From the NCBI GenBank assembly GCA_965205675.1, contig OZ242186.1:704001-768000 (forward strand): a DNA stretch of 64,000 bases. Direction: 5' to 3'. A model generated the notes under the pieces. That model ran no database searches, was not told the origin of the DNA, and worked only from the letters and a program-made list of their open reading frames with translations. This DNA comes from Nitrosopumilus sp. GTDB lineage: Archaea > Thermoproteota > Nitrososphaeria > Nitrososphaerales > Nitrosopumilaceae. Every line of letters starts with the position of its first letter. The first letter of the stretch is position 1. Positions 1-46,794 of the stretch are shown one piece after another. The position numbers were made by a program, and so were the translations under genes.

Positions 1-1156
1 ATCCCAGTGTATCTTTTATTACTTCACGATTTTGCTCAATCAGATTGATGAAAGGAAATACGTAGAATATTCGTTTAATGTTGTTATTTGATTTTAGTAG
101 AGTAAGAGCAAGTTTCATGGAGGTATTTGTCTTGCCGCCGCCTGTGGGAACCTTTAGGTAAAATACTCTTTGTTGAGGACTATTAGAAATAGATTTCTTA
201 AGATTAGAATCCGATTCTAAGAGTATTTTTGTTCTTAATTCATTTAGATCATTAATATCAGGAAGATTTAAATTTTGGATCTTTTTGTAACAAGAAGCAT
301 CGTTTAGTAGATACCCATCAAATTCATATTGGTAAAAATTCTTCTCGCATCTTTCTGCCAAAGAGGGGTTTATTGTAGAGATCTTATCCAAGTAAGATAC
401 ATCCTGCATAAAATCAAGAGTAGCGTAATAGTCACTTGTAATCAAAAGAGAGTAGATTGTCTTGTATAAATAAAACAAAGCCTCTTTTTGCTCGTCTTTT
501 TTGAAAATATAACGTATGTCTTTTTGTTTATAACCATCATTTTTGAAATTATACGCATTAGGCCATTTCTTCGTAGTTAGCAGGATTTTTTTCTGGCCAG
601 TAAAAAAAAGATCAGAAATTGTGTCTAAATCATTTAATTCCTGTTCAATTGTAGTATTGTTACGCATTTTTTTATAAAGAAAATTAATGTCTTGTAATTG
701 TGTATGATGTCTATCTATTGTCTGAGATAATAGGAGGAAAAGAATTTGATATTTCGATTCACAAAATTTGCTGTAAAAATCGTCAAAAAACAGATGATCA
801 AATAATATTTTACCATAAAAGGAATGATCTGAATTTAGACTCTCAGTAGAAACACACAAATCATTTTTCATCTTCTCTTTCTGAAATACAGGGTTAACCT
901 TGCCAAGATCATGATAATATATTATGGATCGAATCAATTCAATGAAATCGGGTGTTTGATGAGCTGGTACCAACGGAGATAAAATGCAATTTAAATTTTC
1001 TTTTAAAGATAGCTTGTTAATTAGGCAATCACAGTATTTCAGTGTCTTTTGTGAATGTGCGATTAATGTCTCAGAGTTTTTATCCCATGATGATGATGTA
1101 TGAGCCAAAATTTTATCATGATATTCTGGTTTTAATATTTGATCAAGAGTTTTCAT
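1..1156 (-). CDS. cas3: CRISPR-associated helicase/nuclease Cas3 (N-terminal HD domain plus start of SF2 helicase; truncated by window edge)
   Basis: Manual translation from ATG at 1156: MKTLDQILKPEYHDKILAH..ETLIAHS..YYHDLGKVNPVFQ (HD motif) and YLKVPTGGGKTNTS (Walker A). Directly downstream of cas5. Absent from the ORF track because it lacks a stop in the window. Confidence 0.93.
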   Translation of the reverse strand, partial: MKTLDQILKPEYHDKILAHTSSSWDKNSETLIAHSQKTLKYCDCLINKLSLKENLNCILSPLVPAHQTPDFIELIRSIIYYHDLGKVNPVFQKEKMKNDLCVSTESLNSDHSFYGKILFDHLFFDDFYSKFCESKYQILFLLLSQTIDRHHTQLQDINFLYKKMRNNTTIEQELNDLDTISDLFFTGQKKILLTTKKWPNAYNFKNDGYKQKDIRYIFKKDEQKEALFYLYKTIYSLLITSDYYATLDFMQDVSYLDKISTINPSLAERCEKNFYQYEFDGYLLNDASCYKKIQNLNLPDINDLNELRTKILLESDSNLKKSISNSPQQRVFYLKVPTGGGKTNTSMKLALTLLKSNNNIKRIFYVFPFINLIEQNREVIKDTLG

Positions 1157-1163
1157 TATCAAA

Positions 1164-2003
1164 TCAGAATAGATATATTGTTTCTCCATCGATCTCAAAC
1201 AGATTTCCTTTTCCTAAATCTACTGAAGAGGTATCGGATCTTTTTGCAAGTTGTGCTACTTGAAGATGATAGTGCATGTTTTCAGAATAGCCTATAGGAT
1301 AATTTTCAACAAATCTAAATCCTCCCGGAAGACCCGATACTGTATGGCCATCATTAGATTCAAATCTACTTGCTGTATCGTTGCCATTGATATGGGTATT
1401 TTCATTATTTGTAAGAAATACAGATGATATGCATTCAGCGTTTTTCTTCTTCTGTTTTACATCTCCTGTGTTTATCTTGTCAAAACATGCAATGAATTCA
1501 TTTTTTCCAAGGTAGGGCATGAAAACAGGCTTGTTGTTTTTTAAGCGATCTGTTAATTCAACAATTGAATCCTTTTCTGCCTGATCGTAAACATAAATTC
1601 TGTATTTGGGTCTTATCAAAAGCTGTTCATGAATAAGTACATTTTCACTTGCTAGTCCTGCTTTGACGTTAACATTGGTATAAAAATAGCTATTTCTGCT
1701 GTTGTATGTGTTTATTATTTTGTTAAATGGAAAATCACCAATTGGTTTTATACCGATCTTGAGATCTTTGAGTCTTTCATAGAATTCAGGAAATTGATTT
1801 AAATCTAAATTATTTTTTTCATTGAATTGTGATGATATCGTTTCATATTGTCTGTCAAATCCACCCATGCCCAAGATACTGCCTATCATTCCCAAAATTG
1901 CAGGTTTTGGAGGGAGATTATATGTTAGACTTGTTTTGTTGATATCTGGCTTCTTAAAGAAACCAAAATCTGAACACATATCAAAATATACAAGATTTAC
2001 CAC
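1164..2003 (-). CDS. cas5: Type I-B Cas5 (Cas5h-like)
   Basis: N-terminal FGFFKKPD..SLTYNLPPKPAILGMIGSILG and PYLGKNEF motifs of Cas5; position in operon. Confidence 0.92.
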   Translation of the reverse strand: MVNLVYFDMCSDFGFFKKPDINKTSLTYNLPPKPAILGMIGSILGMGGFDRQYETISSQFNEKNNLDLNQFPEFYERLKDLKIGIKPIGDFPFNKIINTYNSRNSYFYTNVNVKAGLASENVLIHEQLLIRPKYRIYVYDQAEKDSIVELTDRLKNNKPVFMPYLGKNEFIACFDKINTGDVKQKKKNAECISSVFLTNNENTHINGNDTASRFESNDGHTVSGLPGGFRFVENYPIGYSENMHYHLQVAQLAKRSDTSSVDLGKGNLFEIDGETIYLF

Positions 2004-2020
2004 AAAAATCCCCCAGCGGT

Positions 2021-2983
2021 TTACTTGTCACGTATTTCTTCCAAGGTTACAATGTGTCTCTTTTTGACAGGAAACTCGTTTATTCCAATCAAATCAATTT
2101 CATTATCATCATAGTATAGTTCTATGCTGGAGATGTATTTTTTATAATTACTCTTGAATTGGGAAAAAAGGTTTGACAAGTCTATGATGTTTTTATTCTC
2201 GCCTCTCTTTATCATAACATGATCTTTCATCATTGGTAATATGTGAGATTCTATTCTACCGTCTTTTTCATCAGCATTCATTTCAATAAACAAAAACAAC
2301 TCTGCATCAGATCCGATTTTAGATGCAGATGTAGTATGGCTTATGCCACGACACATGGCTTCTTTGAATAGTTCTATATCAGATTCTAATAAAAGTGATT
2401 TTTCATCTTGTCCCATACCCAATTCTAAAGAGTTGATCAGATTATTGGGGTTGATTACAAAGTCATATACATAATGAGACTCTAATGCCTTTGTTTCATT
2501 ACCAAGAGTTTGCTGTTTTTTATCCTTATCTGATGCATAAGGTGAAAGTATTTGATTGTTGTAAAATAGATTTTCATCAAACCTGTCTATGCCATAAGAA
2601 ATCTGAGTTGTTCCAGTAAGTGAAACCTTTTTGCCTTCTTCTGGATATGTGGCTCCAAATAAACGAACGTCTATCGTAGAAGTTAATTTAGCAATAACAT
2701 CTTTTTTTGTTTTAGCTTCTTTCCCAAAGACTTGACTATAATTTTCATTAATTTCACAAGGATTGCCATCTTTTTTATATCGTCTCCAAACAAATACTTT
2801 TTCGCCTTTATTGTGCAGATACTTTCTGACACAATATTTCAATGCTTTATCTGTAGCATAAATTGTTCCATTTTCATCAGGTAACCGCCTTGGAAGACCA
2901 GAAAAATCGCTGTTAAAAGAACTATTCTTTGCTTTAACAATCAACAGACCCTGAGCAAATTTCTTGAAATGTTTCGGTGTCAT
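2021..2983 (-). CDS. cas7: Type I-B Cas7 (Csh2/DevR-like backbone)
   Basis: NSSFNSDFSGLPRR, TDKALKYCVRKY and IDVRLFGAT motifs typical of Cas7b/Csh2. Confidence 0.93.
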   Translation of the reverse strand: MTPKHFKKFAQGLLIVKAKNSSFNSDFSGLPRRLPDENGTIYATDKALKYCVRKYLHNKGEKVFVWRRYKKDGNPCEINENYSQVFGKEAKTKKDVIAKLTSTIDVRLFGATYPEEGKKVSLTGTTQISYGIDRFDENLFYNNQILSPYASDKDKKQQTLGNETKALESHYVYDFVINPNNLINSLELGMGQDEKSLLLESDIELFKEAMCRGISHTTSASKIGSDAELFLFIEMNADEKDGRIESHILPMMKDHVMIKRGENKNIIDLSNLFSQFKSNYKKYISSIELYYDDNEIDLIGINEFPVKKRHIVTLEEIRDK

Positions 2984-3007
2984 TTACACATAGCCTTCTT
3001 TCTTGCA

Positions 3008-4696
3008 TTAAATAACATTATCGTCTAGTGCTCCAACATAAAATGGAATTTTTAATTCTGTAAAAGACATACTTGGCTCATATGAAAAAACACATGTTGT
3101 AATTTTTTTAAAACGCTTGTTATCAAGTTTAATTTCATGTTTGTATTGTGCAATAAGTTGTTCGATGGTTTTCTTGACCAATTTTGTTGTGGATTTGTTG
3201 GTAAATGGTTCAAGAAGGCCATAAGTGAGCTTTTTTGATTTGGACAAACTTATCAGATAGTATGCTATTTGGCCTGCAAAGTATGCCCATCTCTCATCAC
3301 TATCAATCTCAATTTTCTCATTGTTGTCAGATAGAATTTTGTCTTTTATAGATTTAACATCATCTAAAATACATTTAGGTTTACTTTCATTTGACAACAG
3401 CAAGTGTCTGTTAAAGAACAAATTAAAAGTTTCTTTATCTGGTTTTTCCTTATTTCTTATACTTTTTTCGATTCGGAATAAAATTATATTTTGCAGATCC
3501 TTGAAAGTAAGTGTCTTTTTATTCCTATAAACAAAATCAAATATCTTTTGCCTCAATGAATAGATCAAAGTCGTTTCTTGGTTATCCTTTCCTTTTATCG
3601 GACCAAAATATTTGATAAATGATTTTTTACCATGTAGTGCTTCAGCTAGTTTTCCTTCAAGTTCATAACGTTTGATTGGTTTTGGTTTTTTATCATTTCT
3701 GAAATAGTCAGTAAAACAACCAATTTCCCACGTATAACCCGATACATAATCAAAGAATAGATATTCTTTAGATATAATAACAAGATAAAAATCAAAAACA
3801 TTTCTGTCGCGTTTGTAAAGTTGATTGAATATGAAATTAAATCTGTTTTCATCTCTTTCTAATTTATGATTTAACAATTTAATTTCTCCATTTACTTTAT
3901 CAGATTCAACAAATAAAGGAAAAATTTTGATTTTTTGTTCGTCAAGAATTTTAAGGAATTGATTCAAACTTACTGAACAACTTCTACATACTCTAAGTGG
4001 TATGCCTCCCTGACTAACCCTAGTAATATGTTTTAAAAAAAATTTCTTCCCATCATAATTAGTTAAAAAACTAGGATTTGAAATTTCTAGATTGGATTTT
4101 CGGCATACAAAACATTCTCCTTTAACTACAGATGTTTTTTTACCTATACTAGTTCTTTCTGTAATAAATTCAGAAGCAATTTTATCCCATTTGATAAATC
4201 TTTTTTCATCAGTATGGATCAAAACATGAAAATCCAAATAATTAAAAGTATTATCCTTGTTTTTTGTTAAATCAGGTAAAGCATCATTCAGAATTTCATG
4301 AATGTTTTCAATTAATATGCTATGATTCTTTTTTAGGAATTTTGTTTTGGATATTTTTTTCTTTAAGTCATCAAGGTTTTTTTGAGAGAGTTTAAAGGCA
4401 AAAAAAGTGAATGTTATCAATCCAGACGTACTTCCTAATGCCTTGTTTGGTTCACCAGGTAAAACATAATCTCTAAAACTATCAATTATTTTTTCATAGT
4501 GTTTGTTTTTATCAATCCACCCATTAACTTTGGAATCGTCATCCAGTATTTCAAGTCCATTATACATGAGAGAGTCATCATTCTTATTTTCTTTTGTTTT
4601 AATTATGATAATTTGTTTACCTGACCTAGGTTCTTTATGCTGTGTGGGTGATTCTTTATTGTACATATCAACAAACGTAATTATTTCTTTTAGCAT
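3008..4696 (-). CDS. cas8b: Type I-B large subunit Cas8b (Csh1-like) with C-terminal Cas11-like region
   Basis: 562 aa; CxxC...CxxC (CFVC, CRSC) zinc motif; C-terminal AYFAGQIAYYLISLSKS helix bundle; lies between cas6 and cas7. Confidence 0.85.
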   Translation of the reverse strand: MLKEIITFVDMYNKESPTQHKEPRSGKQIIIIKTKENKNDDSLMYNGLEILDDDSKVNGWIDKNKHYEKIIDSFRDYVLPGEPNKALGSTSGLITFTFFAFKLSQKNLDDLKKKISKTKFLKKNHSILIENIHEILNDALPDLTKNKDNTFNYLDFHVLIHTDEKRFIKWDKIASEFITERTSIGKKTSVVKGECFVCRKSNLEISNPSFLTNYDGKKFFLKHITRVSQGGIPLRVCRSCSVSLNQFLKILDEQKIKIFPLFVESDKVNGEIKLLNHKLERDENRFNFIFNQLYKRDRNVFDFYLVIISKEYLFFDYVSGYTWEIGCFTDYFRNDKKPKPIKRYELEGKLAEALHGKKSFIKYFGPIKGKDNQETTLIYSLRQKIFDFVYRNKKTLTFKDLQNIILFRIEKSIRNKEKPDKETFNLFFNRHLLLSNESKPKCILDDVKSIKDKILSDNNEKIEIDSDERWAYFAGQIAYYLISLSKSKKLTYGLLEPFTNKSTTKLVKKTIEQLIAQYKHEIKLDNKRFKKITTCVFSYEPSMSFTELKIPFYVGALDDNVI

Positions 4697-4742
4697 CTAT
4701 AATATCACACAGTTAAATTGAAATTCTAAATTATATATTCTT

Positions 4743-5486
4743 CTAAACTGTCTTTTTCATGACAGGATTTACAAAACCAAACCCCAACGAGTTGCGTTCT
4801 CCTAGCCCACAGTCAAGGGCAAATTTTTGGATATCGGGGGAAATTCCAGCAGAAAACTTTATCTCCCACAAAGAGCCAATTACCGGAATCTTTGACAAAT
4901 CCTGTTCAATCTTGGTGGAGACTTGTTTTTTAAATTCATAATGCTCAAAAATTCGTTTGTTAATTTGTAAACCCGTAAACTCTTCATATTTTTTTCGCAT
5001 ATTGGCTTCAAGTGCATCGATGAATAGATCGATAGGATGATCTGATCTCCATAAAACTGACTTGTACGGGGCAGTATGTATTGTTTTTCCAGAATATTTT
5101 TCAATCGGTATGCGTATAATTATTGGAGACTGGGTGATTATTTTCAGTGGAAATGTCAAATTTCTTTCAGGTACTTTGATCGCCTTGACTATCTTAAATA
5201 AACTCCCGATTGATATTAACACACAGTTGTCAATAATTTTGATCAATTGTTCATGAATCTGATTTACAAGTTCTTTGTTGGGTGATGATATGATCAGATG
5301 GTAATGATCCGACTTTGTAGATTTGAATATGTTTGAAAAACAGAAAAATTTGTATCCTTTTTTATCGTGCAATTGATCAAAATCACTATTTCTAAGAAAA
5401 GAATAGATGAATCCCTGGATTTTTGCATGATATTCAAAGTTGATTTGATAATTTTGTAATGATTTTATAAAAAGCAATATGCGCAT
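4743..5486 (-). CDS. cas6: CRISPR endoribonuclease Cas6
   Basis: LHDKKGYKFFCFSNI and C-terminal glycine loop GLGERNSLGFGFV. Confidence 0.95.
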   Translation of the reverse strand: MRILLFIKSLQNYQINFEYHAKIQGFIYSFLRNSDFDQLHDKKGYKFFCFSNIFKSTKSDHYHLIISSPNKELVNQIHEQLIKIIDNCVLISIGSLFKIVKAIKVPERNLTFPLKIITQSPIIIRIPIEKYSGKTIHTAPYKSVLWRSDHPIDLFIDALEANMRKKYEEFTGLQINKRIFEHYEFKKQVSTKIEQDLSKIPVIGSLWEIKFSAGISPDIQKFALDCGLGERNSLGFGFVNPVMKKTV

Positions 5487-6341: not shown

Positions 6342-7616
6342 TCATCTTATCATTTTTCTGATATCTGCCTTTGTGTGCGCATTTGATATGGCACCTAGTT
6401 TTCCTGGCAAAAAGAAAATTCCGTCATGTGCTATCATTTTAAAATGATATTCATGCAGGGCCTTGATATCACACATTGCTGCTTGGCAAGCATTGGTAAT
6501 CTCTGAAATCCCGTCTTTAACAAAATGAGTCATAAACAAAGACCCCTTGCCTGTAACTATGACTTTGCCATCAAATGACTTTGTTAGTTCTTGTCTTGCA
6601 TATTGCCCCAAATCGTTAATCTTAGAATACACTGAACTGTTGTTTTTTAACACCAATAGAGTAGCATACCCTGATGTCATAGAAGCTGGATTTGCAGAAA
6701 ACGTACCTCCCCCCACATAACTTCGCTTTGACTTTTTCTTATCTGTGGTATCTGCATGCTTCATGATTTCTTTTTTTCCACACATCACTCCAATTGCCAT
6801 TCCGCCTCCTACAATCTTACCTAATGTAACAATGTCTGGATCTAACTTCATTGTAGGGTATAGACATCCGTATCTGAATCTAAATCCTGTAACAATTTCA
6901 TCTAAAATAAACAATGACTTGTTTTTATGAACAAACTCTTGAACCCCTTTGAGATATTCTGGAGTAGCTGGAATACATCCTGCACCTCCCAACACTGGCT
7001 CTATGATTACTCCTGCTAAATCCTTTGCGTGTTTCCTAAGAATTTTTAGCGAACCTTCTAAATCATTGTAAGGTATGGAAATAATCTTCTCTTCATTTAC
7101 TATTCCGCTACTTTCTGATTCACTAAACGGCCAGTTTACACTTTTGAGCAAATCTGATGTGTATCCGTGCCATCCTCCATCAATCTTTGCAATAATTTTT
7201 TTCCTAGTTACTGAACGTGCCAGTCTTACTGCATACATTGTAGCTTCAGTTCCTGATGTGACATAGCGAATTTTTTCAGCAACTGGAACTGCCTTTGAAA
7301 TTAATTCTGATAATTTTATTGTCTGTTCATTTACAGTTCCATACATCCAACTTTTTTCAATTTGTTTTCTCAGAGAATCCTTGACATCTTTTGGAGCGTG
7401 TCCTAAAATTAAACTCCAATGTCCCATCCAATAATCTGTATACTTGTTCTCATCTACATCTACAAGATTTTTTCCAGAAGATGATTTTACTACAAATGGA
7501 TATGGTTCATAATATCGTATATTGTGAGAAACACCATTTACATGAAGTCTCAATGACTTTGCAAATATTTTTGCAGAATTTTTTGTCTTTTTTTTATACT
7601 CTGTAATGTAACTCAA
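6342..7616 (-). CDS. hemL: Glutamate-1-semialdehyde 2,1-aminomutase (class III aminotransferase)
   Basis: [34 protein letters not shown] (PLP lysine) and GGTFSANP motifs; divergent from 16S rRNA as is typical of group I.1a thaumarchaea. Confidence 0.9.
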
Positions 7617-7770
7617 AAGTAATTTTTAAAATAAAATCTGTCATTTTAACTATCAAAATAACCATCTCTGGTCAGTCTCTAAAAGTAAGGCATGTTTGAG
7701 TGGATGATATGGAGAATAAAATGTGTAATTTTTACAATTTTTTGACCCGATCAGGCATAATTTCACGTAT

Positions 7771-7780
7771 GGTTTATATG
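7771..7780 (+). promoter_or_regulatory. Putative TATA box of the rRNA operon promoter
   Basis: GGTTTATATG about 230 nt upstream of the 16S 5' end, ahead of a structured leader. Confidence 0.5.
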
Positions 7781-8001
7781 GATTCTGGTTTTATTGGCTT
7801 CTGCATACGTAACGCAATAGGCGGCGCCCGTGATGAAGTATGGCAAGATGCCACTTTGTGATTTATGGGCCTCCAGTTACGCATACAAAAATGAGGATTT
7901 GATTGCAAGATCAATATCTGAGATGTGAAGATTATGTGCATCCGTCAATTCCAATTAAAGTACAAATGTACTTCAATAATCAAAACAAAAAAATAATTCA
8001 G

Positions 8002-9472
<1,471 letters not shown>

Positions 9473-9624
9473 TAGACAAGGAAAGTGTACGGGTGTACAT
9501 AATCTTCATATCAAATCATCGATGCAATGCATCACCAAAAGTGATGTATGAAGGATGTAGTATGTCCCTGCCAGGGGACTTGCAATGATCGTCGTGCATA
9601 GTCGTGTAATATGTGGCTGAATAT

Positions 9625-12612
<2,988 letters not shown>

Positions 12613-12697
12613 CGGTTCAGCCACTTACATAGAGACTATGCGCGATGATTTCATTCATATCATCAAGTGGATAACATATACACGACTTGTACGATGA

Positions 12698-12775
12698 TTT
12701 TATTTTTTAATCATACATAGCGTAAGCTATGTGTTTTTATTTTTTAATCATACATAGCGTAAGCTATGTGTTTTT
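12698..12775 (+). terminator. Tandemly duplicated (37-bp period) hairpin plus T-tract downstream of the rRNA operon
   Basis: ACATAGC-GTAA-GCTATGT followed by TTTTT occurs twice in exact tandem. Confidence 0.6.
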
Positions 12776-17223: not shown

Positions 17224-18312
17224 ATGACTCGTATAATTTTTGTATTTTTTCTATTTTTGTTGATTCCTGGCAGTTTTGTATCTGCGTTTGGAATGGTAAA
17301 TGATCTTTCTACTAACAAATCATTTTATTATGACGGCGATCAATTAATTGTCTCTGGAGATGTTTCTTATGATCCTTCAATTCCTTTTGTAACTGTACAA
17401 ATTTTTACTCCTGGAAAATCAAATTTTGCTGATTTTGATACAGTTCCTGCAAATGCTGATGGTAGTTTCTCAGCTGCCTTTAATGTTGGAGGTCCTACTT
17501 GGTCTTCTTATGGGATCTATCCAATAAAAATAACATATGGTGGAAATAAAGAAATATCTATCGAGTATAGAGAATCTCTAGAAATTCCCTCTTCTGAAAC
17601 CTCTACGCCTCAAACCTCTACGCCTCAAACCTCTACGCCTCAAACCTCTACGCCTCAAACCTCTACGCCTCAAACCTCTACGCCTCAAACCTCAATTCCT
17701 GAAAATGTCTCAGAACCACTTCCTTTAGAACCTGTTTCCACGTTCAGTATGCTGAAACTACAAGTTCCAAATTTTCCTGCTCTTGATAAATCTCCCCAAT
17801 ACTATATTGATAGATACAATGGTGAATCAAGTTACAAGTCTTGGTTTGATTCACAATTTCCCAATTATTCTATTAATGATGTTGTAGGTTACAAATCAAC
17901 CCAAGTTCCAAATTTTCCTGCTCTTGATAAATCTCCCCAATACTATATTGATAGATACAATGGTGAATCAAGTTACAAGTCTTGGTTTGATTCACAATTC
18001 CCAAACTCTTCAATTTACAATGTTTTGGGATATGCTGACCCTATTTCTGTGCCTGATTGGATTCGTAATAATGCTGAATGGTGGGCAATTGGAGAAATTG
18101 ATGATTCTACATTTGTATCTGGAATTGAATTTATGTTGGAAAATGACATCATTATGGTCTCATCTGTTTCATCTGGAAATTCCTCTGATGAAGAAATACC
18201 TGCATGGATTCGTAATAATGCTCATTGGTGGTCACAAGATTTAATTTCTGAAAATGAGTTTATCTCTTCTCTGGAATATCTTATCCGTGAAGGTATTATC
18301 ACCATAAATTAA
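17224..18312 (+). CDS. Secreted/surface protein with TSTPQ linker repeats and C-terminal IP-W-RNNA-WW thaumarchaeal domains
   Basis: Signal peptide, S/T/P-rich linker, two VPDWIRNNAEWW / IPAWIRNNAHWW units. Confidence 0.8.
   Translation: MTRIIFVFFLFLLIPGSFVSAFGMVNDLSTNKSFYYDGDQLIVSGDVSYDPSIPFVTVQIFTPGKSNFADFDTVPANADGSFSAAFNVGGPTWSSYGIYPIKITYGGNKEISIEYRESLEIPSSETSTPQTSTPQTSTPQTSTPQTSTPQTSTPQTSIPENVSEPLPLEPVSTFSMLKLQVPNFPALDKSPQYYIDRYNGESSYKSWFDSQFPNYSINDVVGYKSTQVPNFPALDKSPQYYIDRYNGESSYKSWFDSQFPNSSIYNVLGYADPISVPDWIRNNAEWWAIGEIDDSTFVSGIEFMLENDIIMVSSVSSGNSSDEEIPAWIRNNAHWWSQDLISENEFISSLEYLIREGIITIN
17597..17693 (+). repeat. 15-bp tandem repeat AAACCTCTACGCCTC x6 (TSTPQ)
   Basis: Read directly from sequence. 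Confidence 0.95.
17761..17999 (+). repeat. 98-bp perfect internal duplication (141-bp period) in the surface protein gene
   Basis: 17761-17858 is identical to 17902-17999. Confidence 0.9.
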
Positions 18313-26374: not shown

Positions 26375-26713
26375 ATGTTGACAAACATTGGAGCTGGTGG
26401 AATCATTTATGATCTACGTAAAAAAATCCAAGAAATTCAAGCAGATTTGGCTCAATTAGACCATCCTGTATCTGAAATTCCTGAAATGATTGAATCTTCA
26501 AACTTACTGCGTTCTAATCGATATCTTTCACAGGCAAATGATAAGAAAACTGAGCTATTATCTGCATACGAACAATATTCTGTGGCCCTTGAGGAATTAC
26601 TTGCATCTGTTTTTGAGATACAAAAGGATCTTAAAGAAATTCTCAAAGAACAATCGTCGTTAATTTCAACTCCTAGAAAAAAACCCTCAAAACCAAAATC
26701 TAAGAAAAAATGA
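26375..26713 (+). CDS. Hypothetical coiled-coil protein
   Basis: Full-length ORF with upstream TATA-like TTTAA; host-like composition. Confidence 0.7.
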   Translation: MLTNIGAGGIIYDLRKKIQEIQADLAQLDHPVSEIPEMIESSNLLRSNRYLSQANDKKTELLSAYEQYSVALEELLASVFEIQKDLKEILKEQSSLISTPRKKPSKPKSKKK

Positions 26714-28771: not shown

Positions 28772-28796
28772 TAATACACATACTTAGATCTTGAGC

Positions 28797-28900
28797 TAGC
28801 TGCTGACTATTAGGACCAAATCTATACTTCTCAACGGTGAAGGGCTTGGCAGCTCCCTCGGTGTGAGATAGCTGCTGACTATTAGGACCAAATCTATACT
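28797..28900. repeat. 30-32-bp direct repeat separated by a 40-42-bp GC-rich insert
   Basis: TAGCTGCTGACTATTAGGACCAAATCTATACT at 28797 and 28869. Confidence 0.9.
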
Positions 28901-30230: not shown

Positions 30231-30496
30231 GATTCTATCAATATGTGACTTTTGTTAAGAGATACAGTTATTGGTAATTGACTAAAAATGAAAAAAATAT
30301 TAATGGATTTTTTGCATATGGCAAGAAACACAAGTTTGTGAGTTGTTTCTCAGGCGTTTTATTTGTTTATTCGTACTTATCTTAAGATAAAATCAGCTGT
30401 TTTCCAGTTTTTGGACTCCTTTAATTCATAAATCTTGTCTTTTGACTATGCAAAATTAACGAGTCCAGATTATACACTATTTAAACCAAAAAGAGG

Positions 30497-30666
30497 GTAT
30501 GTATCAAGCCTCATGCCTAGAATTTGTTTTTAGTTTCCATTTTTGTTCCTGATGGGGTAGATGACCTTGATTCATACAAAAGAGGGTATGTATCAAGCCT
30601 CATGCCTAGAATTTGTTTTTAGTTTCCATTTTTGTTCCTGATGGGGTAGATGACCTTGATTCATAC
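30497..30666. mobile_element. Tandem dimer of an 81-bp IS66-derived MITE
   Basis: Units 30497-30577 and 30586-30666 are identical; ends GTATGTATCAAGC / CCTTGATTCATAC match the IS66 TIR at 38024/41748; each unit bounded by the 8-bp AAAAGAGG (last copy AAAAGAGA). Confidence 0.88.
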
Positions 30667-31148
30667 AAAAGAGATTGAAAATATCATCGTGCCTCAGAAG
30701 AAAAAGTCGTTTCTTGACCAAGTTGTTTGGCAAAAAAATAACTGAATTACAAATCTTTCTAGTTTTAACCAAAGTACATTATTTAGCTTGTATCTCAATT
30801 CAAAGATGGATAATCTAGACAATTATCCCCCAGATCGTAGGGGTGAACACTTGGATGATGCATAGATTAGTATTATTGGAAAACCTTAATTTGTATACGA
30901 GTCCAATAAAACAGATTGGTTTGTTTTAGATGTGATGGAAAAGGTCAATACAAGAATCAATTCGGGATTATGGAAAAATGTGAATCATGTCAAAAAAAAG
31001 ATATGTCTTTTGAAAAAGTAAACACTGAATCTGATTCTGATGAAGAACGATATTAAGAGATTCTTATTATCCTTAGTTGTTTCTATAAAATTCTAATTTT
31101 GATCTGTATTTTCATTGAGTTTAAATTGTAATTATTTTTAATATTTCT

Positions 31149-37707: not shown

Positions 37708-38440
37708 AAGTTTACATTACAAATTTTAAACCTAGGTTTAATCATTTGCTATACTGTAAAATAATCCTAGATTTTATCATATGTGATAATTTTTACCAAA
37801 TCTCTATTTCTTGATCTTAAATCCCGTTAATATTCAGATTTCTATCGTGAATATCTATCCTTTAGAAAAATTAATTCAGATGGCTTCATATTTGTCATTT
37901 ACAGTATTGATCTATTGGGCCTTCATCATCAAATATGAGTTTTGATATTAATTTATATCTCATTTATCTATTCTGCGATATGTCTCTGTTAATTTTGTGT
38001 ACTCCTGTAGATTCTTCCTTAGTGTATGTATCAAGCTTCACACATAAATCAATACCATTACACAAAAAATCAAAGATCAGCTAAATCATTCTACAATACA
38101 TGTCAGAGTGTGGTCATGAGAAAATCATCTTACAATTACAAGAAAAAGTAAAACAACTCATGCAAAAATTATCATACTATGAAAATCCACACTCACCACC
38201 ATCAAAAAATTCACTTGAATGGAGAAAACAGAAACAAGATGCAAAGAAAAACAGAGATTCTGATTCTGGCAAATCAAAACGTGGTGGCATACCGGGTCAC
38301 AAGGGCACAACACAGAAATTCACCCCAACTAGTACCATACATCACAAATGTTTAGAATGTCCCAAATGTGGAAGTGAAGATATCCTTCAAATCAAGACTG
38401 CCAAAAGAATAATGGTTGAAATCCCTCCACCAACTCAATA

Positions 38441-39594
38441 TAGTTTAGGCATATAAATTTTGAACGAATTATCAACTATTTTAACCCAAAAGATCTAGAT
38501 CATAGTTTATACTTACAGAATCATGTCAAAACAAACTAAAGCATTAATGGTATCTTCAGGAAGCCATTTCATGAAAGGAACAAGCATTAATTTTTTAAGA
38601 AAAACATGCAAGAATGAAAAAAATGCAAAAGCGAAGATAAGATTAAAGGCTGCAATACTAAGAAAACAAGATATTCCATATTCTGTGATATGTGCCAGTT
38701 TGGATGTCATACCATCAACTCTGTCCTACTGGCTAAATCGAATGGATAAAGAGGGAATAACTGCATCACACCGTAAGGAATATTCTGGCTCTAGATGTTT
38801 CTTAAATAAAAAACAACTAGTGTCATTAAGAGATGATCTAATTTCAGGTCCAGAAAAGTTTGGATTCAATCAATTCATGTGGAGTACAAGAATGGTAATT
38901 ACACATGTGAATAAAAAATACAACACGCTATACTCTGCAAGAGGAATGCGTGAATTGCTGCACAGAATCGGATTCTCATCTAAAAAACCAAGACAGACTC
39001 ATCACAAATCAGCCTCAAAAGAGGAACAAACCCGTTTTAAAAAAACGCAAAAAGGAGTATCAAAAAATATTCCAAATTGGGATACACCACACTATGTCTG
39101 GACGAGTCAACAAATAAAGTAGCACCCAACATAAAGCGCGGATGGTATCTTGCAGGCAATAACATTACCACACCAATTAATTACACTCGAGAAAAATTTC
39201 AATCATTTGGTGCATTGGGCAATAACGGTGTATTTTTTTGCAGGTTCTATGATAAATCAAACACAGACTCATTTCTTGATTTTTTAGAATCACTGCAAAA
39301 ACAATTTGGTAAGAAATTGTTACTGTTTGCTTTTTTGTAGATAATGCATCATACCACAAAAGTGTCCGAGTAAAAGAATTTCTCAAAGCACCAAAAAATA
39401 AAGTAATAATTAGATATTTTCCTGCATACACTCCAGAACTCAATCCAATTGAGATACAGTGGAGAGAAGAGAAAAATGGTAATGCCAATACATTCTTTGC
39501 AAATGGAACTGAAATGAGAAAACACATGCAGAAGAGACTAGATAATGGAGCGGTTCGAGTTGTTAAAGTGTTCAAATATTTAATGCCTTAACTA
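38441..39594 (+). mobile_element. IS630-family element nested in IS66 (orfA 38523-39122; orfB broken near 39330)
   Basis: TA duplication; TIRs TAGTTTAGGCAT / ATGCCTTAACTA; TTTTAAAAAAAC slippery site; LDES, DNASYH and PELNPIE motifs. Confidence 0.92.
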
Positions 39595-39596
39595 TA

Positions 39597-39682
39597 CATT
39601 GCAACTGACACCTGCAACTTTTCCAGATAACAGGTCAATTTCCGGTTGAAATCCCTCCACCAACTCAATACATTGCAACTGA
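39597..39682. repeat. 39-bp direct duplication of IS66 coding sequence (first copy 38414-38440 plus 39597-39608, split by IS630; second copy 39644-39682) flanking a unique 35-bp insert
   Basis: GGTTGAAATCCCTCCACCAACTCAATACATTGCAACTGA occurs twice; insert CACCTGCAACTTTTCCAGATAACAGGTCAATTTCC at 39609-39643. Confidence 0.9.
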
Positions 39683-39933
39683 GCATGTCTTGTATCAATA
39701 CAATTGTAAGAACTGCTCTGATAGTTTCAAGACAGATGGAAATCTTCCACCATGTGGATGCTTTGATGCTTCTGCAATACGTGAGGGGGTCTCATTATTC
39801 TCAAAGAGAATGCCATACGATACCATTAGAGTAACTCTTCAAGAAAGATATGGATTGAAAATTAGTTGCACTACAGTACAATCTATTCTTCGCACTGGCA
39901 GTATTATGTTAGAACCATTGTACCATGACACTA

Positions 39934-41031
39934 TACTTCCTAACATAAGTTCGTCAACCATCCTCTCGTTGCATATACTTGAGAATGTCTAAATTGAATC
40001 GTCTGGTTCTGTAATATTTGGAGATGTTATTTTTCAGATTACTTAGAGATGGTTGATACTGTGACACCAACAAATTGTATTTTCCTTGCTTCCATACTTC
40101 CTCAACTGCATTGAACTGTGGTGAGCCTTTTGGAAACCAATTCAATAGAACATCATCTGCATTCTCATCAAGATATTTTTGTACTAGTTTTGATCTGTGT
40201 TGTGGTGCTCGGTCTACATAGACTAGAATCTTGCCAAACTTTCTGTGCAATTCCTTTAGATAATCCAAAAAACAGTACTGATCAAATTTTTCATATTGTC
40301 TGAATAATTGCCTGCCGTCATGAGTCAGTGCACCAAAAATGATTGTTTTTTGATGTGACCCGTTTACTAGAATAATTGGACGGGTTCCTTTCTTTACCCA
40401 CATCTTTTTTCTAAATATCGCATCAGCAGTAAAGATGGACTCATCTTGTGCAAGAACTGTAAAGCCTTTTGCTATTTTTGAGGCTATTTGTTCTTTGGAG
40501 TTTTTTTAAACCAGAGTTTTTCCTCAACACTAGCTGAATTTACAAATCTCTTTGCTGCAACCTTTGGAACAAATCCCCATTTGTGTAATAATCTGTACAC
40601 ATGAACCTCATGATATTTTACACCTGATTTTTGATAAATCAGATTCATCACTTGCTTTGCACTCCAGCCGGATTGTTTTTCTGCAATTTGTAGTTGAATG
40701 CTGACTAGTTTCTTTTTTGGTATACTAGTTGGTCTGCCAGTTCTAGGCAAGTCTTGCAGTCCTGCAATTCCATATTCTGCAAATCTATCTAACCATTTGT
40801 ATGCCCATGAACGTACACGTCCAAGATTCTTTGCAACATGTGATGCAATTTGGTTCTCAAGTAATACTCGCTTTATCAAAAATAGCCTTTCTTTTACCTT
40901 GACGTTCTTTTCATCTTTGTATGCTTGAATTAATTTTTGATTATTCATGGTTTGATGTGTAATGTTTTGATCAATATGGCATTTGGTAAAATAAATCAGA
41001 TCAACAGATCATAAAATTTTGTTAGAGAGTA
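39934..41031 (-). mobile_element. IS630-family element nested in IS66, apparently intact (orfA 40484-40948 plus -1 frameshifted orfB to 39954)
   Basis: TA duplication; TIRs TACTCTCTAACA / TGTTAGGAAGTA; TTTAAAAAAAC slippery site joins to QDES..DRAPQH..SPQFNAVE DDE domain. Confidence 0.93.
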
Positions 41032-41812
41032 TAGTAGTGAAATTGTGACTGAAAAGATCCTAGGATTAGATGAGACGACATTCCCAATTGACGGAAAGAT
41101 GGGATGGATGTTAGGTTGCAAGAAGCAAAACTGAAGCTCATTACACTTTAGAGTACAGTAGAGGTGCTAAAATATTAAAAAAGTATTGGAAAAAATTTAC
41201 AGGAATTCTAGTATCTGATGGATACGCTCCATACAGAACGGTATTTTGTGATAATGTAAAACAGAGATGCACTGCACATCTGCAGCGTGATGCAAAATAT
41301 CTTGCAAGAAAATCAAATGATAAACAGGCTAAAACCATTTATGGAAAACTCTCAAAACTATTGCATCGTGCAAGACGGTATAGCATACAAGAACATTCAG
41401 AGAAACAACGTAAAAGATATGCGTTGAATTTACTAAAACAAACAGATTCTATAATATGTCAATACATGTCAGGTGATAAAGAAATGATTCAGTTTGGTAA
41501 GAAACTAAAAACTGCAAGAAATAGTCTGTTTACATTTGTGAAATATCCCTGTATTCCATCAACTAACAATGACACTGAAAATTCTATTCAAAAGTGTATC
41601 ATGCAGAGAAATGTTCGCGGACAGATGAAAAGCAATCAGGGAATGAGGATGCTTTCTATATTTTTAACATGCTTTGAAACATGGAGGATAAGGGAGTTGA
41701 ATATGTTTTCTGAGATGGCAAAATACATCTAAAGTGCTTGATACATACTCCTTAGTTGTTATGTGTGCTGAATGACTTTCAACAGGATCTTTATAAGCAC
41801 TAATTACACAAA

Positions 41813-45813: not shown

Positions 45814-46794
45814 TTGAGCAACAATAAATCTAATGATGCAGAAGATATTTTATCAGAATTTGATTCTAGAAATAAACCAGAACCAACACCAGAACCAACA
45901 CCAGAACCAACACCAGAACCAACACCAGAACCAACACCAGAACCAACACCAGAACCAACACCAGAACCAACACCAGAACCAACACCAGAACCAACACCAG
46001 AACCAACACCAGAACCAACACCAGAACCAACACCAGAACCAACACCAGAACCAACACCAGAACCAACACCAGAACCAACACCAGAACCAACACCAGAACC
46101 AACACCAGAACCAACACCAGAACCAACACCAGAACCAACACCAGAACCAACACCAGAACCAACACCAGAACCAACACCAGAACCAACACCAGAACCAACA
46201 CCAGAACCAACACCAGAACCAACACCAGAACCAACACCAGAACCAACACCAGAACCAACACCAGAACCAACACCAGAACCAACACCAGAACCAACACCAG
46301 AACCAACACCAGAACCAACACCAGAACCAACACCAGAACCAACACCAGAACCAACACCAGAACCAACACCAGAACCAACACCAGAACCAACACCAGAACC
46401 AACACCAGAACCAACACCAGAACCAACACCAGAACCAACACCAGAACCAACACCAGAACCAACACCAGAACCAACACCAGAACCAAGTTCCCCGGAAACT
46501 TCTAAATCTCCAAAAGCACCAGAAGAACGTGATGTAATCTTTGTTGGAACTAAACCCATAATGACTTATGTTTCTGCAACCTTAACTCAACTTTCAACTA
46601 GAACTATTGTTACTATCAAAGCAAGAGGTAAACGAATTACTCAAGCTGTTGATGTCTCTCAAATGATTGTAAAACGAATGGATTTTGTAGGATATGTAAT
46701 TAGTGATGTAAGAATTACATCTAATTCTTTAACCTCTCAAGATGGAAAAAAACGTAATGTTTCTACTATAGAAATTGATATTTCAAAAAATTAA
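45814..46794 (+). CDS. Alba-family DNA/RNA-binding protein with a long N-terminal (PEPT)50 tract
   Basis: C-terminal [34 protein letters not shown] is the Alba fold. Confidence 0.88.
45877..46485 (+). repeat. Perfect 12-bp tandem repeat CCAGAACCAACA x50 (plus 9-bp partial)
   Basis: Counted directly; no variant units seen. Confidence 0.97.

Follow-up and report, generated by a model that had tools for sequence, protein, structure and literature searches.

How does a spacer-length segment of DNA come to lie between two identical copies of a piece of coding sequence, outside any CRISPR array? The question is raised by a degenerate IS66-family transposable element in a Nitrosopumilus sp. (assembly GCA_965205675.1; a single-contig genome of 2.01 Mb, contig OZ242186.1). 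The element lies within the 64,000-nt stretch of DNA analyzed here (the window; genome 704,001–768,000), to which coordinates refer unless they are marked as genome. Its transposase gene contains a 35-bp insert flanked by two copies of a 39-bp coding segment, an arrangement that an initial annotation took for a spacer integrated at a repeat-like site, giving birth to an orphan mini-array. We find that this unit belongs to a genome-wide family of similar insertions, and that it is probably a scar left when Cas1-Cas2, whichever CRISPR module supplied the enzyme, integrated a spacer ectopically, away from any array. Ectopic integration by Cas1-Cas2, as first proposed, remains the best mechanism; the initial annotation was right in kind and probably wrong on the enzyme, the choice of site, and the nascent array.

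The IS66-family element (38024–41748, +; extent from blastn against sister copies) is host to the 74-bp insertion and to two nested IS630-family elements. Its C-terminal open reading frame (ORF; 41361–41732) matches the IS66 transposase profile NF033517 with an E value of 4e-14, under the curated cut-off, as it is a fragment. Repeat copy 1 is split at a TA dinucleotide into its first 27 bp (38414–38440, +; identical to 39644–39670) and its last 12 bp (39597–39608, +) by an IS630-family element of 1154 bp with inverted ends (38441–39594, +; profile NF033545, E = 7e-19 and 1e-9). The TA target duplication of this element occupies 38439–38440 and 39595–39596, and at least 11 near-identical copies of it are present in the genome. 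When the element is removed in silico, the two halves of copy 1 join into exactly the 39-bp sequence of the intact repeat copy 2 (39644–39682, +), and the two copies form a target-site duplication around the 35-bp insert (39609–39643, +). The 39–35–39 partition is unambiguous because the bases flanking the copies differ on both sides, and the IS630-family element landed after the 74-bp event, because copy 1 is split and copy 2 is uninterrupted. The second nested IS630-family element, of 1090 bp (39941–41030, −; NF033545, E = 4e-23 and 5e-21), is present in the genome in eight full copies at 99 to 100% identity and is unrelated to the event.

As read from a sister IS66 copy, the 39-mer codes for VEIPPPTQYIATE, between both Cys pairs of a zinc finger, and the insert brings a TAA (39628–39630) into the transposase frame of the IS66 gene. 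All three other IS66 copies with the exact 39-mer (genome 987689, +; 1618110, −; and 1857851, −) hold it once, without an insert, and thus represent the empty site. The initial annotation had described the 39–35–39 structure, correctly in every detail, as well as the stop codon, the later arrival of the IS630-family element, and the expectation that other IS66 copies lack the duplication, and all of these are borne out. Its proposal that the insert inactivated the transposon is not, since the sister copy L006, the only one with ORFs listed, is frameshifted as well. In the public sequencing run that best covers the locus, a 197-nt Logan contig spans the end of the IS630-family element, the partial repeat, the insert, the full repeat, and downstream sequence (39572–39767) at a depth of 10.5, similar to the 13.8 of a neighboring contig. 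Because this run is possibly the assembly's own source data, the contig rules out a consensus artifact but is no independent proof. In a run from a second organism, the IS66 site is empty and the insert is without cover.

A direct-repeat scan of the genome for isolated, nontandem pairs (length of at least 26, spacing of 20–400) returned 25 isolated pairs, of which 14 have a spacing of 60–79 bp, so that the two-copy structure is far beyond chance. One of these 14 is a degenerate orphan mini-array, and the remaining 13 are two-copy units, each with its own unique insert. The IS66 unit is missing from the 25 pairs because IS630 splits its first copy; with it, the genome holds 14 events. Spacing forms two peaks, at 64–67 and 70–74, with nothing comparable close to them and no unit at a period of 68–69. 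Class 1 comprises four units with a 30-bp duplication (one possibly 32 bp), an insert of 32 to 37 bp, and a period of 64–67. Class 2 comprises 10 units, including the IS66 unit and one other unit in the window, with a duplication of 36 to 39 bp, an insert of 32 to 36 bp (mean 34.6), and a period of 70–74 (mean 72.1). The repeat copies are perfect in eight of the 10 class 2 units, which are therefore recent. According to the direct-repeat scans, no unit in this genome has gained a second spacer.

The second class 2 unit in the window (28792–28900; genome 732792) consists of a 37-bp repeat, a 35-bp insert, and a second 37-bp repeat with one mismatch, with a period of 72; its insert has 63% G+C, compared with 34% for the genome, and long ORFs are absent from that stretch. 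Most other units lie between genes or at gene ends, a placement expected if selection removes harmful insertions. One class 2 unit interrupts an atypical tRNA-Phe-like gene (genome 541136–541279; L013 2971–3109), in which ARAGORN reads the 72-bp insertion as an intron; this copy may be dispensable, the canonical tRNA-Phe being located at genome 1563605–1563679. Another lies in an ORF without a family match (genome 1599699–1599808; L017 3001–3110), to which it adds 72 bp, or 24 codons in frame, extending it from 240 to 264 codons and leaving it open. The gene of another IS66-family transposase contains one further unit. A 31-kb cluster (genome 1470–1506 kb; L015, L016) accounts for four of the 14 units; its surroundings include an IS66-family transposase, a ParB-like gene, and numerous short, broken reading frames, and the region is possibly an old integrated element tolerating insertions. 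Two candidates were set aside: a 23-bp repeat at genome 30670, whose apparent insert is conserved in the relative G091, and a 72-nt "intron" called by ARAGORN in a tRNA-Gln, which has no internal repeat and is coincidental.

In class 2, captured DNA has truly been inserted. Two of the units lie at the 3′ ends of conserved genes, hemA (glutamyl-tRNA reductase) and a UbiA-family gene, and in all five of the relatives aligned at each site the repeat is single and the insert is missing. The insert at genome 1774800 reproduces exactly 32 bp (34 bp allowing for boundary ambiguity) from 430 kb away, where the source is present five times in a tandem gene repeat; microhomology at its junctions is 0 and 2 nt. 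The other 13 of the 14 inserts have no template in their own genome and therefore point to foreign DNA. Among these, the 35-bp insert of the IS66 unit is found nowhere else in the 2.01-Mb genome, in which only chance-level 12- to 14-mers match it. In G091, seven of 23 queried inserts match elsewhere in its own 1.6 Mb, compared with none of 288 array spacers. Such a contrast would be expected if self-derived segments were tolerated as inert ectopic units and lethal as spacers in a working array. A possible TCN stands beside four of eight self-derived protospacers, which we regard as a lead only.

The genome has a type I-B locus, as the initial annotation stated; it is complete, includes cas4, cas1, and cas2, and lies 40 kb from the IS66 unit. 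The native array (genome 698254–699002, 5 kb before the window) has 12 repeats of 30 bp and 11 spacers of 34 to 37 bp, and together with the adjoining cas4-cas1-cas2 genes occupies genome 698254–700895, just upstream of the window. The effector genes (2–5486, −) are the start of cas3, cas5, cas7, a large subunit without a family match, and cas6. The cas1 gene, whose frame is open, matches the type I-B profile TIGR03641 at 437 bits and is the sole cas1 in the genome. The native repeat is closely related to the type I-B repeat of Haloarcula hispanica (GTTT...CGAAC...GG ATTGAA..). The description of the insert as spacer length, with a target duplication, holds: its 35 bp are the modal length of the native spacers (n = 11; 34–37 bp). 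Aligned in register with the native 30-bp repeat, the four targets of class 1 agree with it at 15, 17, 18, and 19 of 30 positions (9.6 ± 2.3 for random genomic 30-mers; p = 0.019–0.00015); the resident enzyme has thus carried out ectopic integration here.

Several further features surround the resident locus. An IS630-family element lies between cas2 and cas3 (genome 701265–702263; L001 15265–16263), and ISH3 transposase fragments adjoin the far end of the native array, which has only 11 spacers compared with 37 to 69 or more repeats in arrays of the same type in relatives. The locus falls within a stretch of about 30 kb that is missing from the syntenic region of G091. Nearby, 6351–12774 (genome 710351–716774) aligns with G091 1,477,500–1,485,000, where the chunks at 1,477,500–1,482,500 are 97% identical and the next 90%; against 75 to 88% in the surrounding synteny, this block may reflect recent exchange beside the CRISPR locus. 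A degenerate orphan mini-array with two repeats of the native 30-nt type and a 38-bp spacer is located at genome 9807–9905 (L002 1807–1905), next to a short ORF fragment that looks transposase-like by eye only.

Two relatives were scanned, over 1.6 Mb of G091 and 0.8 Mb of G018, which makes three genomes in all. G091 has a 30-nt array repeat identical to that of this genome and yielded 40 isolated pairs, 23 of them at a spacing of 70–79 (21 were analyzed as class 2). Its units are mostly perfect, with duplications of 32 to 43 bp, inserts of 32 to 39 bp, and a mean period of 72.7. G091 also has two other, large arrays that are missing from the genome studied here. One, with a 36-nt repeat, adjoins a Cas4-Cas1 fusion, Csb2, and Cas3g, and is thus type I-G; the other, with a 37-nt repeat, adjoins Cas7/Csh2, Cas5b, Cas3, Cas6b, Cas1, Cas2, and Cas4, and is thus a second I-B-like system. 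Both arrays have a mean period of 73.2 and spacers of mostly 35 to 38 bp. G018 retains an orphan I-G-like array of six repeats (periods 72–74), and its six units at a spacing of 70–79, which look older, with 0 to 3 mismatches between copies, have a mean period of 72.5.

Period is the robust measure for these comparisons, because chance matches at the boundaries lengthen the repeat at the expense of the insert, and mismatches in old copies have the opposite effect. The period peaks of the genome studied here, at about 65 and about 72, mirror the two array unit lengths of the genus. The I-G and second I-B arrays of G091 and G018 combine repeats of 36 to 37 nt with spacers of 35 to 38 nt at a period of 72–74, which matches the 74-bp IS66 unit; unlike in those arrays, the 39-mer has no significant repeat match, and neither system is present in this genome. 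An aside in the initial annotation that 74 bp could be read as 37 + 37 thus came nearer to the evidence, with its 36/37-nt systems, than did the link that it drew to type I-B.

Among 80 sampled genomes of the genus, the 36-nt array type occurs in six and the 37-nt type in nine, and the CRISPR modules of the genus are mobile. In G091, a 22-kb island (1,444,702–1,466,812; L122, L123) contains a DDE transposase, the cas operon of the second I-B-like system, and an array with 132 copies of the 37-nt repeat, and is bounded by a direct repeat of about 9 to 12 bp (..TTTCAGGAA), with a 14-bp repeat at its inner ends. The unoccupied site of this island is present in the window at about 26,480, within an uninterrupted ORF (26375–26713, +). 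In another relative (G095, L044 1500–1670), an orphan hybrid mini-array has one 30-nt repeat, a 36-bp spacer, and two copies of a 34-nt sequence (period 71) that, as its reverse complement, resembles the 37-nt repeat of G091. A further relative (G048, C1 1416752–1482301) has three cas1 matches within 66 kb in ORFs of 409 to 416 aa, sizes suggestive of casposases.

The IS66 site was probably not selected by resemblance to a CRISPR repeat. Allowing a free gap, the 39-mer matches the native repeat at 12 of 30 positions (p = 0.55); it matches the I-G repeat at 17 of 36 (p = 0.07) and the second I-B repeat at 15 of 37 (p = 0.74). The GTTGAAAT...ATTGCAAC ends within it, which the initial annotation read as near-inverted and repeat-like, pair at seven of nine positions (p about 0.1), and the other nine class 2 units score lower and do not have this feature. 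Matching of half-repeats with free offsets is significant for no class, and the sole Rfam CRISPR match on the 39-mer, CRISPR-DR36, is at chance level (15.2 bits, E = 2.9). Of the comparison with the native array that had been proposed, the spacer length fits, whereas the repeat, at 30 bp rather than 35 to 39 bp, bears no likeness to the duplicated segment. The birth of a mini-array is likewise unlikely, as the 39-mer is not a repeat resembling a Cas6 substrate and no unit has a second spacer. Judged by its sequence, the IS66 unit is most likely an inert two-copy scar and not a functioning mini-array, because the 39-mer is transposase coding sequence unlike the repeats of the genus, no leader is present, and no unit has received a second insert. 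No leader-like flank was found at the IS66 unit, which sits inside a gene with a single insert.

Class 2 sites share a signature at the level of single bases. Taking this genome and G091 together, the 31 class 2 units offer 62 attack sites, one on each strand, and the duplicated segment begins with G at 25 of these 62, relative to a background of 16.7% (p = 8e-6); all three native repeat types (30-nt I-B, 36-nt I-G, and 37-nt second I-B) start with G. The 5′ terminal bases of the inserts (62) are T in 27 cases, A in 16, C in 15, and G in 4. This share of G resembles that of second I-B spacers (5% G) and I-G spacers (10% G) and differs from that of the G091 I-B-30 spacers (27% G; Fisher p = 0.0006).

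The insertion with its target duplication, the empty sites, the genome-wide classes, and the self-derived inserts are direct observations, whereas the enzyme and the module that supplied it are inferred. We propose the following sequence of events. A 35-bp foreign fragment would have been linked to both strands of the IS66 transposase gene, with 39 bp separating the two joins, and gap filling would have duplicated the 39 bp in between; an IS630-family element subsequently inserted into the first repeat copy. Class 2 events fall on essentially any sequence, and their one preference is for G at the first duplicated position. If Cas1-Cas2 is responsible, a 36/37-nt type of module, lost or extrachromosomal, is somewhat favored as the source of class 2 over a relaxed activity of the resident type I-B integrase, because of the coincidence in geometry and the base signature at the insert ends.

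A number of observations count against integration by Cas1-Cas2 or against a 36/37-nt source for it. The duplication is 39 bp, compared with 30 bp for the resident repeat; it comes within 2 to 3 bp of the 36/37-nt repeats of congeners, but those systems are absent here. Remnants of I-G or second I-B cas genes are absent from this genome, in which tblastn with the G091 Cas proteins matches only the resident cas1 and cas3; likewise, the genome has no I-G or second I-B repeat within 11 substitutions, no repeat-end motifs, and no array match. With no trace of a 36/37-nt type here, the favored source requires complete loss. The targets do not lead back to a repeat: those of the 10 class 2 units show no likeness to the native repeat, also when an internal gap is freely allowed (p = 0.35–0.99), or to the I-G and second I-B repeats, and share no de novo motif (p = 0.33), and those of G091 resemble none of its three repeats, with four of 25 at p about ≤0.055 against the I-G repeat, barely over expectation. 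No protospacer or protospacer-adjacent motif was found for the 35-bp insert, a check that the initial annotation had called for: it has no exact 35-mer match in three public collections of viral, metagenome, and genome contigs, and is unmatched in the scanned parts of G091 and G018, in searches that were exact or near-exact and that a diverged protospacer would escape. The native I-B spacers also have no target in a phage collection (chance-level matches only), in 80 genomes of the genus (array-to-array matches only), or in their own genome. G018, in which cas1 is absent, still has six units with a period of 71–75 in 0.8 Mb, though its orphan array and mismatched copies make it no clean negative control either way. 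Finally, according to the main text of the H. hispanica study, engineered type I-B repeats gave only 29- to 33-bp duplications, and insertions of at least 4 nt abolished adaptation (PMC4872114).

How these points are weighed depends on what else could have produced the unit. The resident type I-B integrase might act in a sequence-independent mode in which, without motif anchors, the second attack falls about 37 bp from the first and not 30. This account, which lies within the Cas1-Cas2 reading, is credible but doubtful. It draws on the only cas1 in the genome, on class 2 inserts whose mean length of 34.6 fits the resident spacers (34–37), on the recent age implied by the eight units with perfect copies, and on an I-B ruler that, in the main text of PMC4872114, is motif-anchored and movable. 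It would make the equality between the stagger and the repeat length of the other CRISPR types of the genus a coincidence; the aberrant sizes that this text gives for the repeat family reach only 33 bp, the terminal bases of the inserts differ from those of G091 I-B-30 spacers, and G018 has units and no cas1. Distinctly less likely still is the form of this idea put forward initially, in which the resident Cas1-Cas2 was drawn by repeat-like ends and gave rise to an incipient orphan mini-array open to transcription and processing. The intact cas4-cas1-cas2 genes 40 kb away, the insert at the modal native spacer length, GTTGAAAT...ATTGCAAC in the 39-mer with its weak CRISPR-DR36 match, and the four class 1 units, which show that the integrase strikes repeat-like sites, all speak for it. 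However, those four units have 30-bp duplications rather than 39 bp, the likeness of the 39-mer is at chance and its inverted ends are at p about 0.1, neither feature recurs in the nine sister units that share its geometry, and no unit has a second spacer.

Outside CRISPR, a Cas1-independent machine, whether an integrase or a repair pathway common to the genus, might capture about 36 bp and insert it with a stagger of about 37 bp, with the 36/37-nt arrays of the genus sharing or descended from its geometry. Units are present in all three genomes whatever their CRISPR content, including the one without cas1, class 2 targets lack repeat likeness, and the 36/37-nt type of system is absent here. 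We nevertheless consider such a machine unlikely and do not favor it, because the geometry is that of the CRISPR units of the genus and the genome without cas1 keeps an orphan array of that type. In addition, class 1 proves ectopic Cas1-Cas2 integration in this genome, the end-base signatures match array spacers, and Cas1-Cas2 is the only integrase known to insert DNA of any sequence at one set length like that of a spacer. An accident of replication or repair, in which template switching or microhomology-mediated repair duplicated 39 bp and added distant filler, is very improbable. One insert does copy a remote locus, with junction microhomology of 0 and 2 nt, but 13 of 14 inserts have no genomic template, and filler of a constant 32 to 37 bp at a constant period at 14 sites here and more than 20 in a relative would be unexpected. 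Hardly any weight falls on an assembly artifact, for instance a polishing error or the fusion of occupied and unoccupied IS630 sites into one chimera. The region is crowded with multi-copy IS elements, yet the Logan contig (possibly from the assembly's data) bridges the IS630 end, insert, and repeat 2 at normal depth, and this architecture is found again at single-copy loci, for which other species show the orthologous empty site, as well as in two further genomes.

Ectopic integration by Cas1-Cas2 has experimental precedents. Nivala, Shipman and Church reportedly obtained off-target ("neo-CRISPR") spacer integration in 2018 (Nat Microbiol 3:310) with over-expressed type I-E Cas1-Cas2 in Escherichia coli. 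As in that system, spacer-length inserts here lie outside arrays, the target is duplicated to give two repeats and one spacer, and Cas1-Cas2 is encoded in the genome; unlike in that system, the events are natural, number 14 in this one genome, and mostly have a duplication length unfit for the resident system. Of natural off-target integration, a paper citing that work (bioRxiv 10.1101/148544) mentions only "circumstantial evidence" in two other species. In vitro, Cas1-Cas2 of Pyrococcus furiosus makes off-target strand joins in pairs, 30 to 31 bp apart, where the DNA shares positions with the repeat, and it favors G as the base joined, as given in the main text of PMC6698737. On that description, class 1 behaves exactly as the off-target full-site integration of P. 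furiosus does, both being archaeal with a 30-bp repeat; class 2 has the G preference in common with it and differs in its stagger of 36 to 39 bp and its lack of repeat-like positions. In H. hispanica type I-B, the size of the duplication is set by the position of a mid-repeat motif and can be shifted (PMC4872114, main text); the 39-bp duplication is outside the 29- to 33-bp range given there and, coming from a resident ruler, would be new behavior. These stagger ranges for P. furiosus and H. hispanica are those of the main texts, and the supplementary site lists might show rarer long staggers. For type I-G, a study of a Geobacter module gives mainly 36-bp spacers (PMC6547450).

Like transposons and casposons, class 2 combines staggered strand joining with gap repair that duplicates the target; unlike them, every insert is different, and terminal inverted repeats and transposase cargo are lacking. 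Casposase duplications are about 14 to 15 bp. Apart from these insertions, the window contains perfect tandem arrays at 45876–46486 (12 bp × 51), 17597–17693 (15 bp × 6.5), and 30489–30673 (89 bp × 2.1).

A full-text literature search, limited to searchable texts, found no report of natural genome-wide ectopic integration; the scale, the two classes of fidelity, and scars that outlive their CRISPR system are thus apparently new relative to the literature searched. This genome offers 14 clean natural events, and a relative more than 20, with orthologous empty sites, self-derived inserts, and two separate geometries. If Cas1-Cas2 made them, ectopic integration would be a real mutational cost of CRISPR adaptation, striking gene ends, a tRNA-like gene, and transposons, and the scars would form a fossil record that reveals CRISPR types lost by the lineage. 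Target fidelity would then vary widely among adaptation modules, with that of the 30-nt I-B type striking only repeat-like sites and those of the 36/37-nt type almost anywhere, a difference that would bear on the origin of new arrays and on the use of integrases as molecular recorders.

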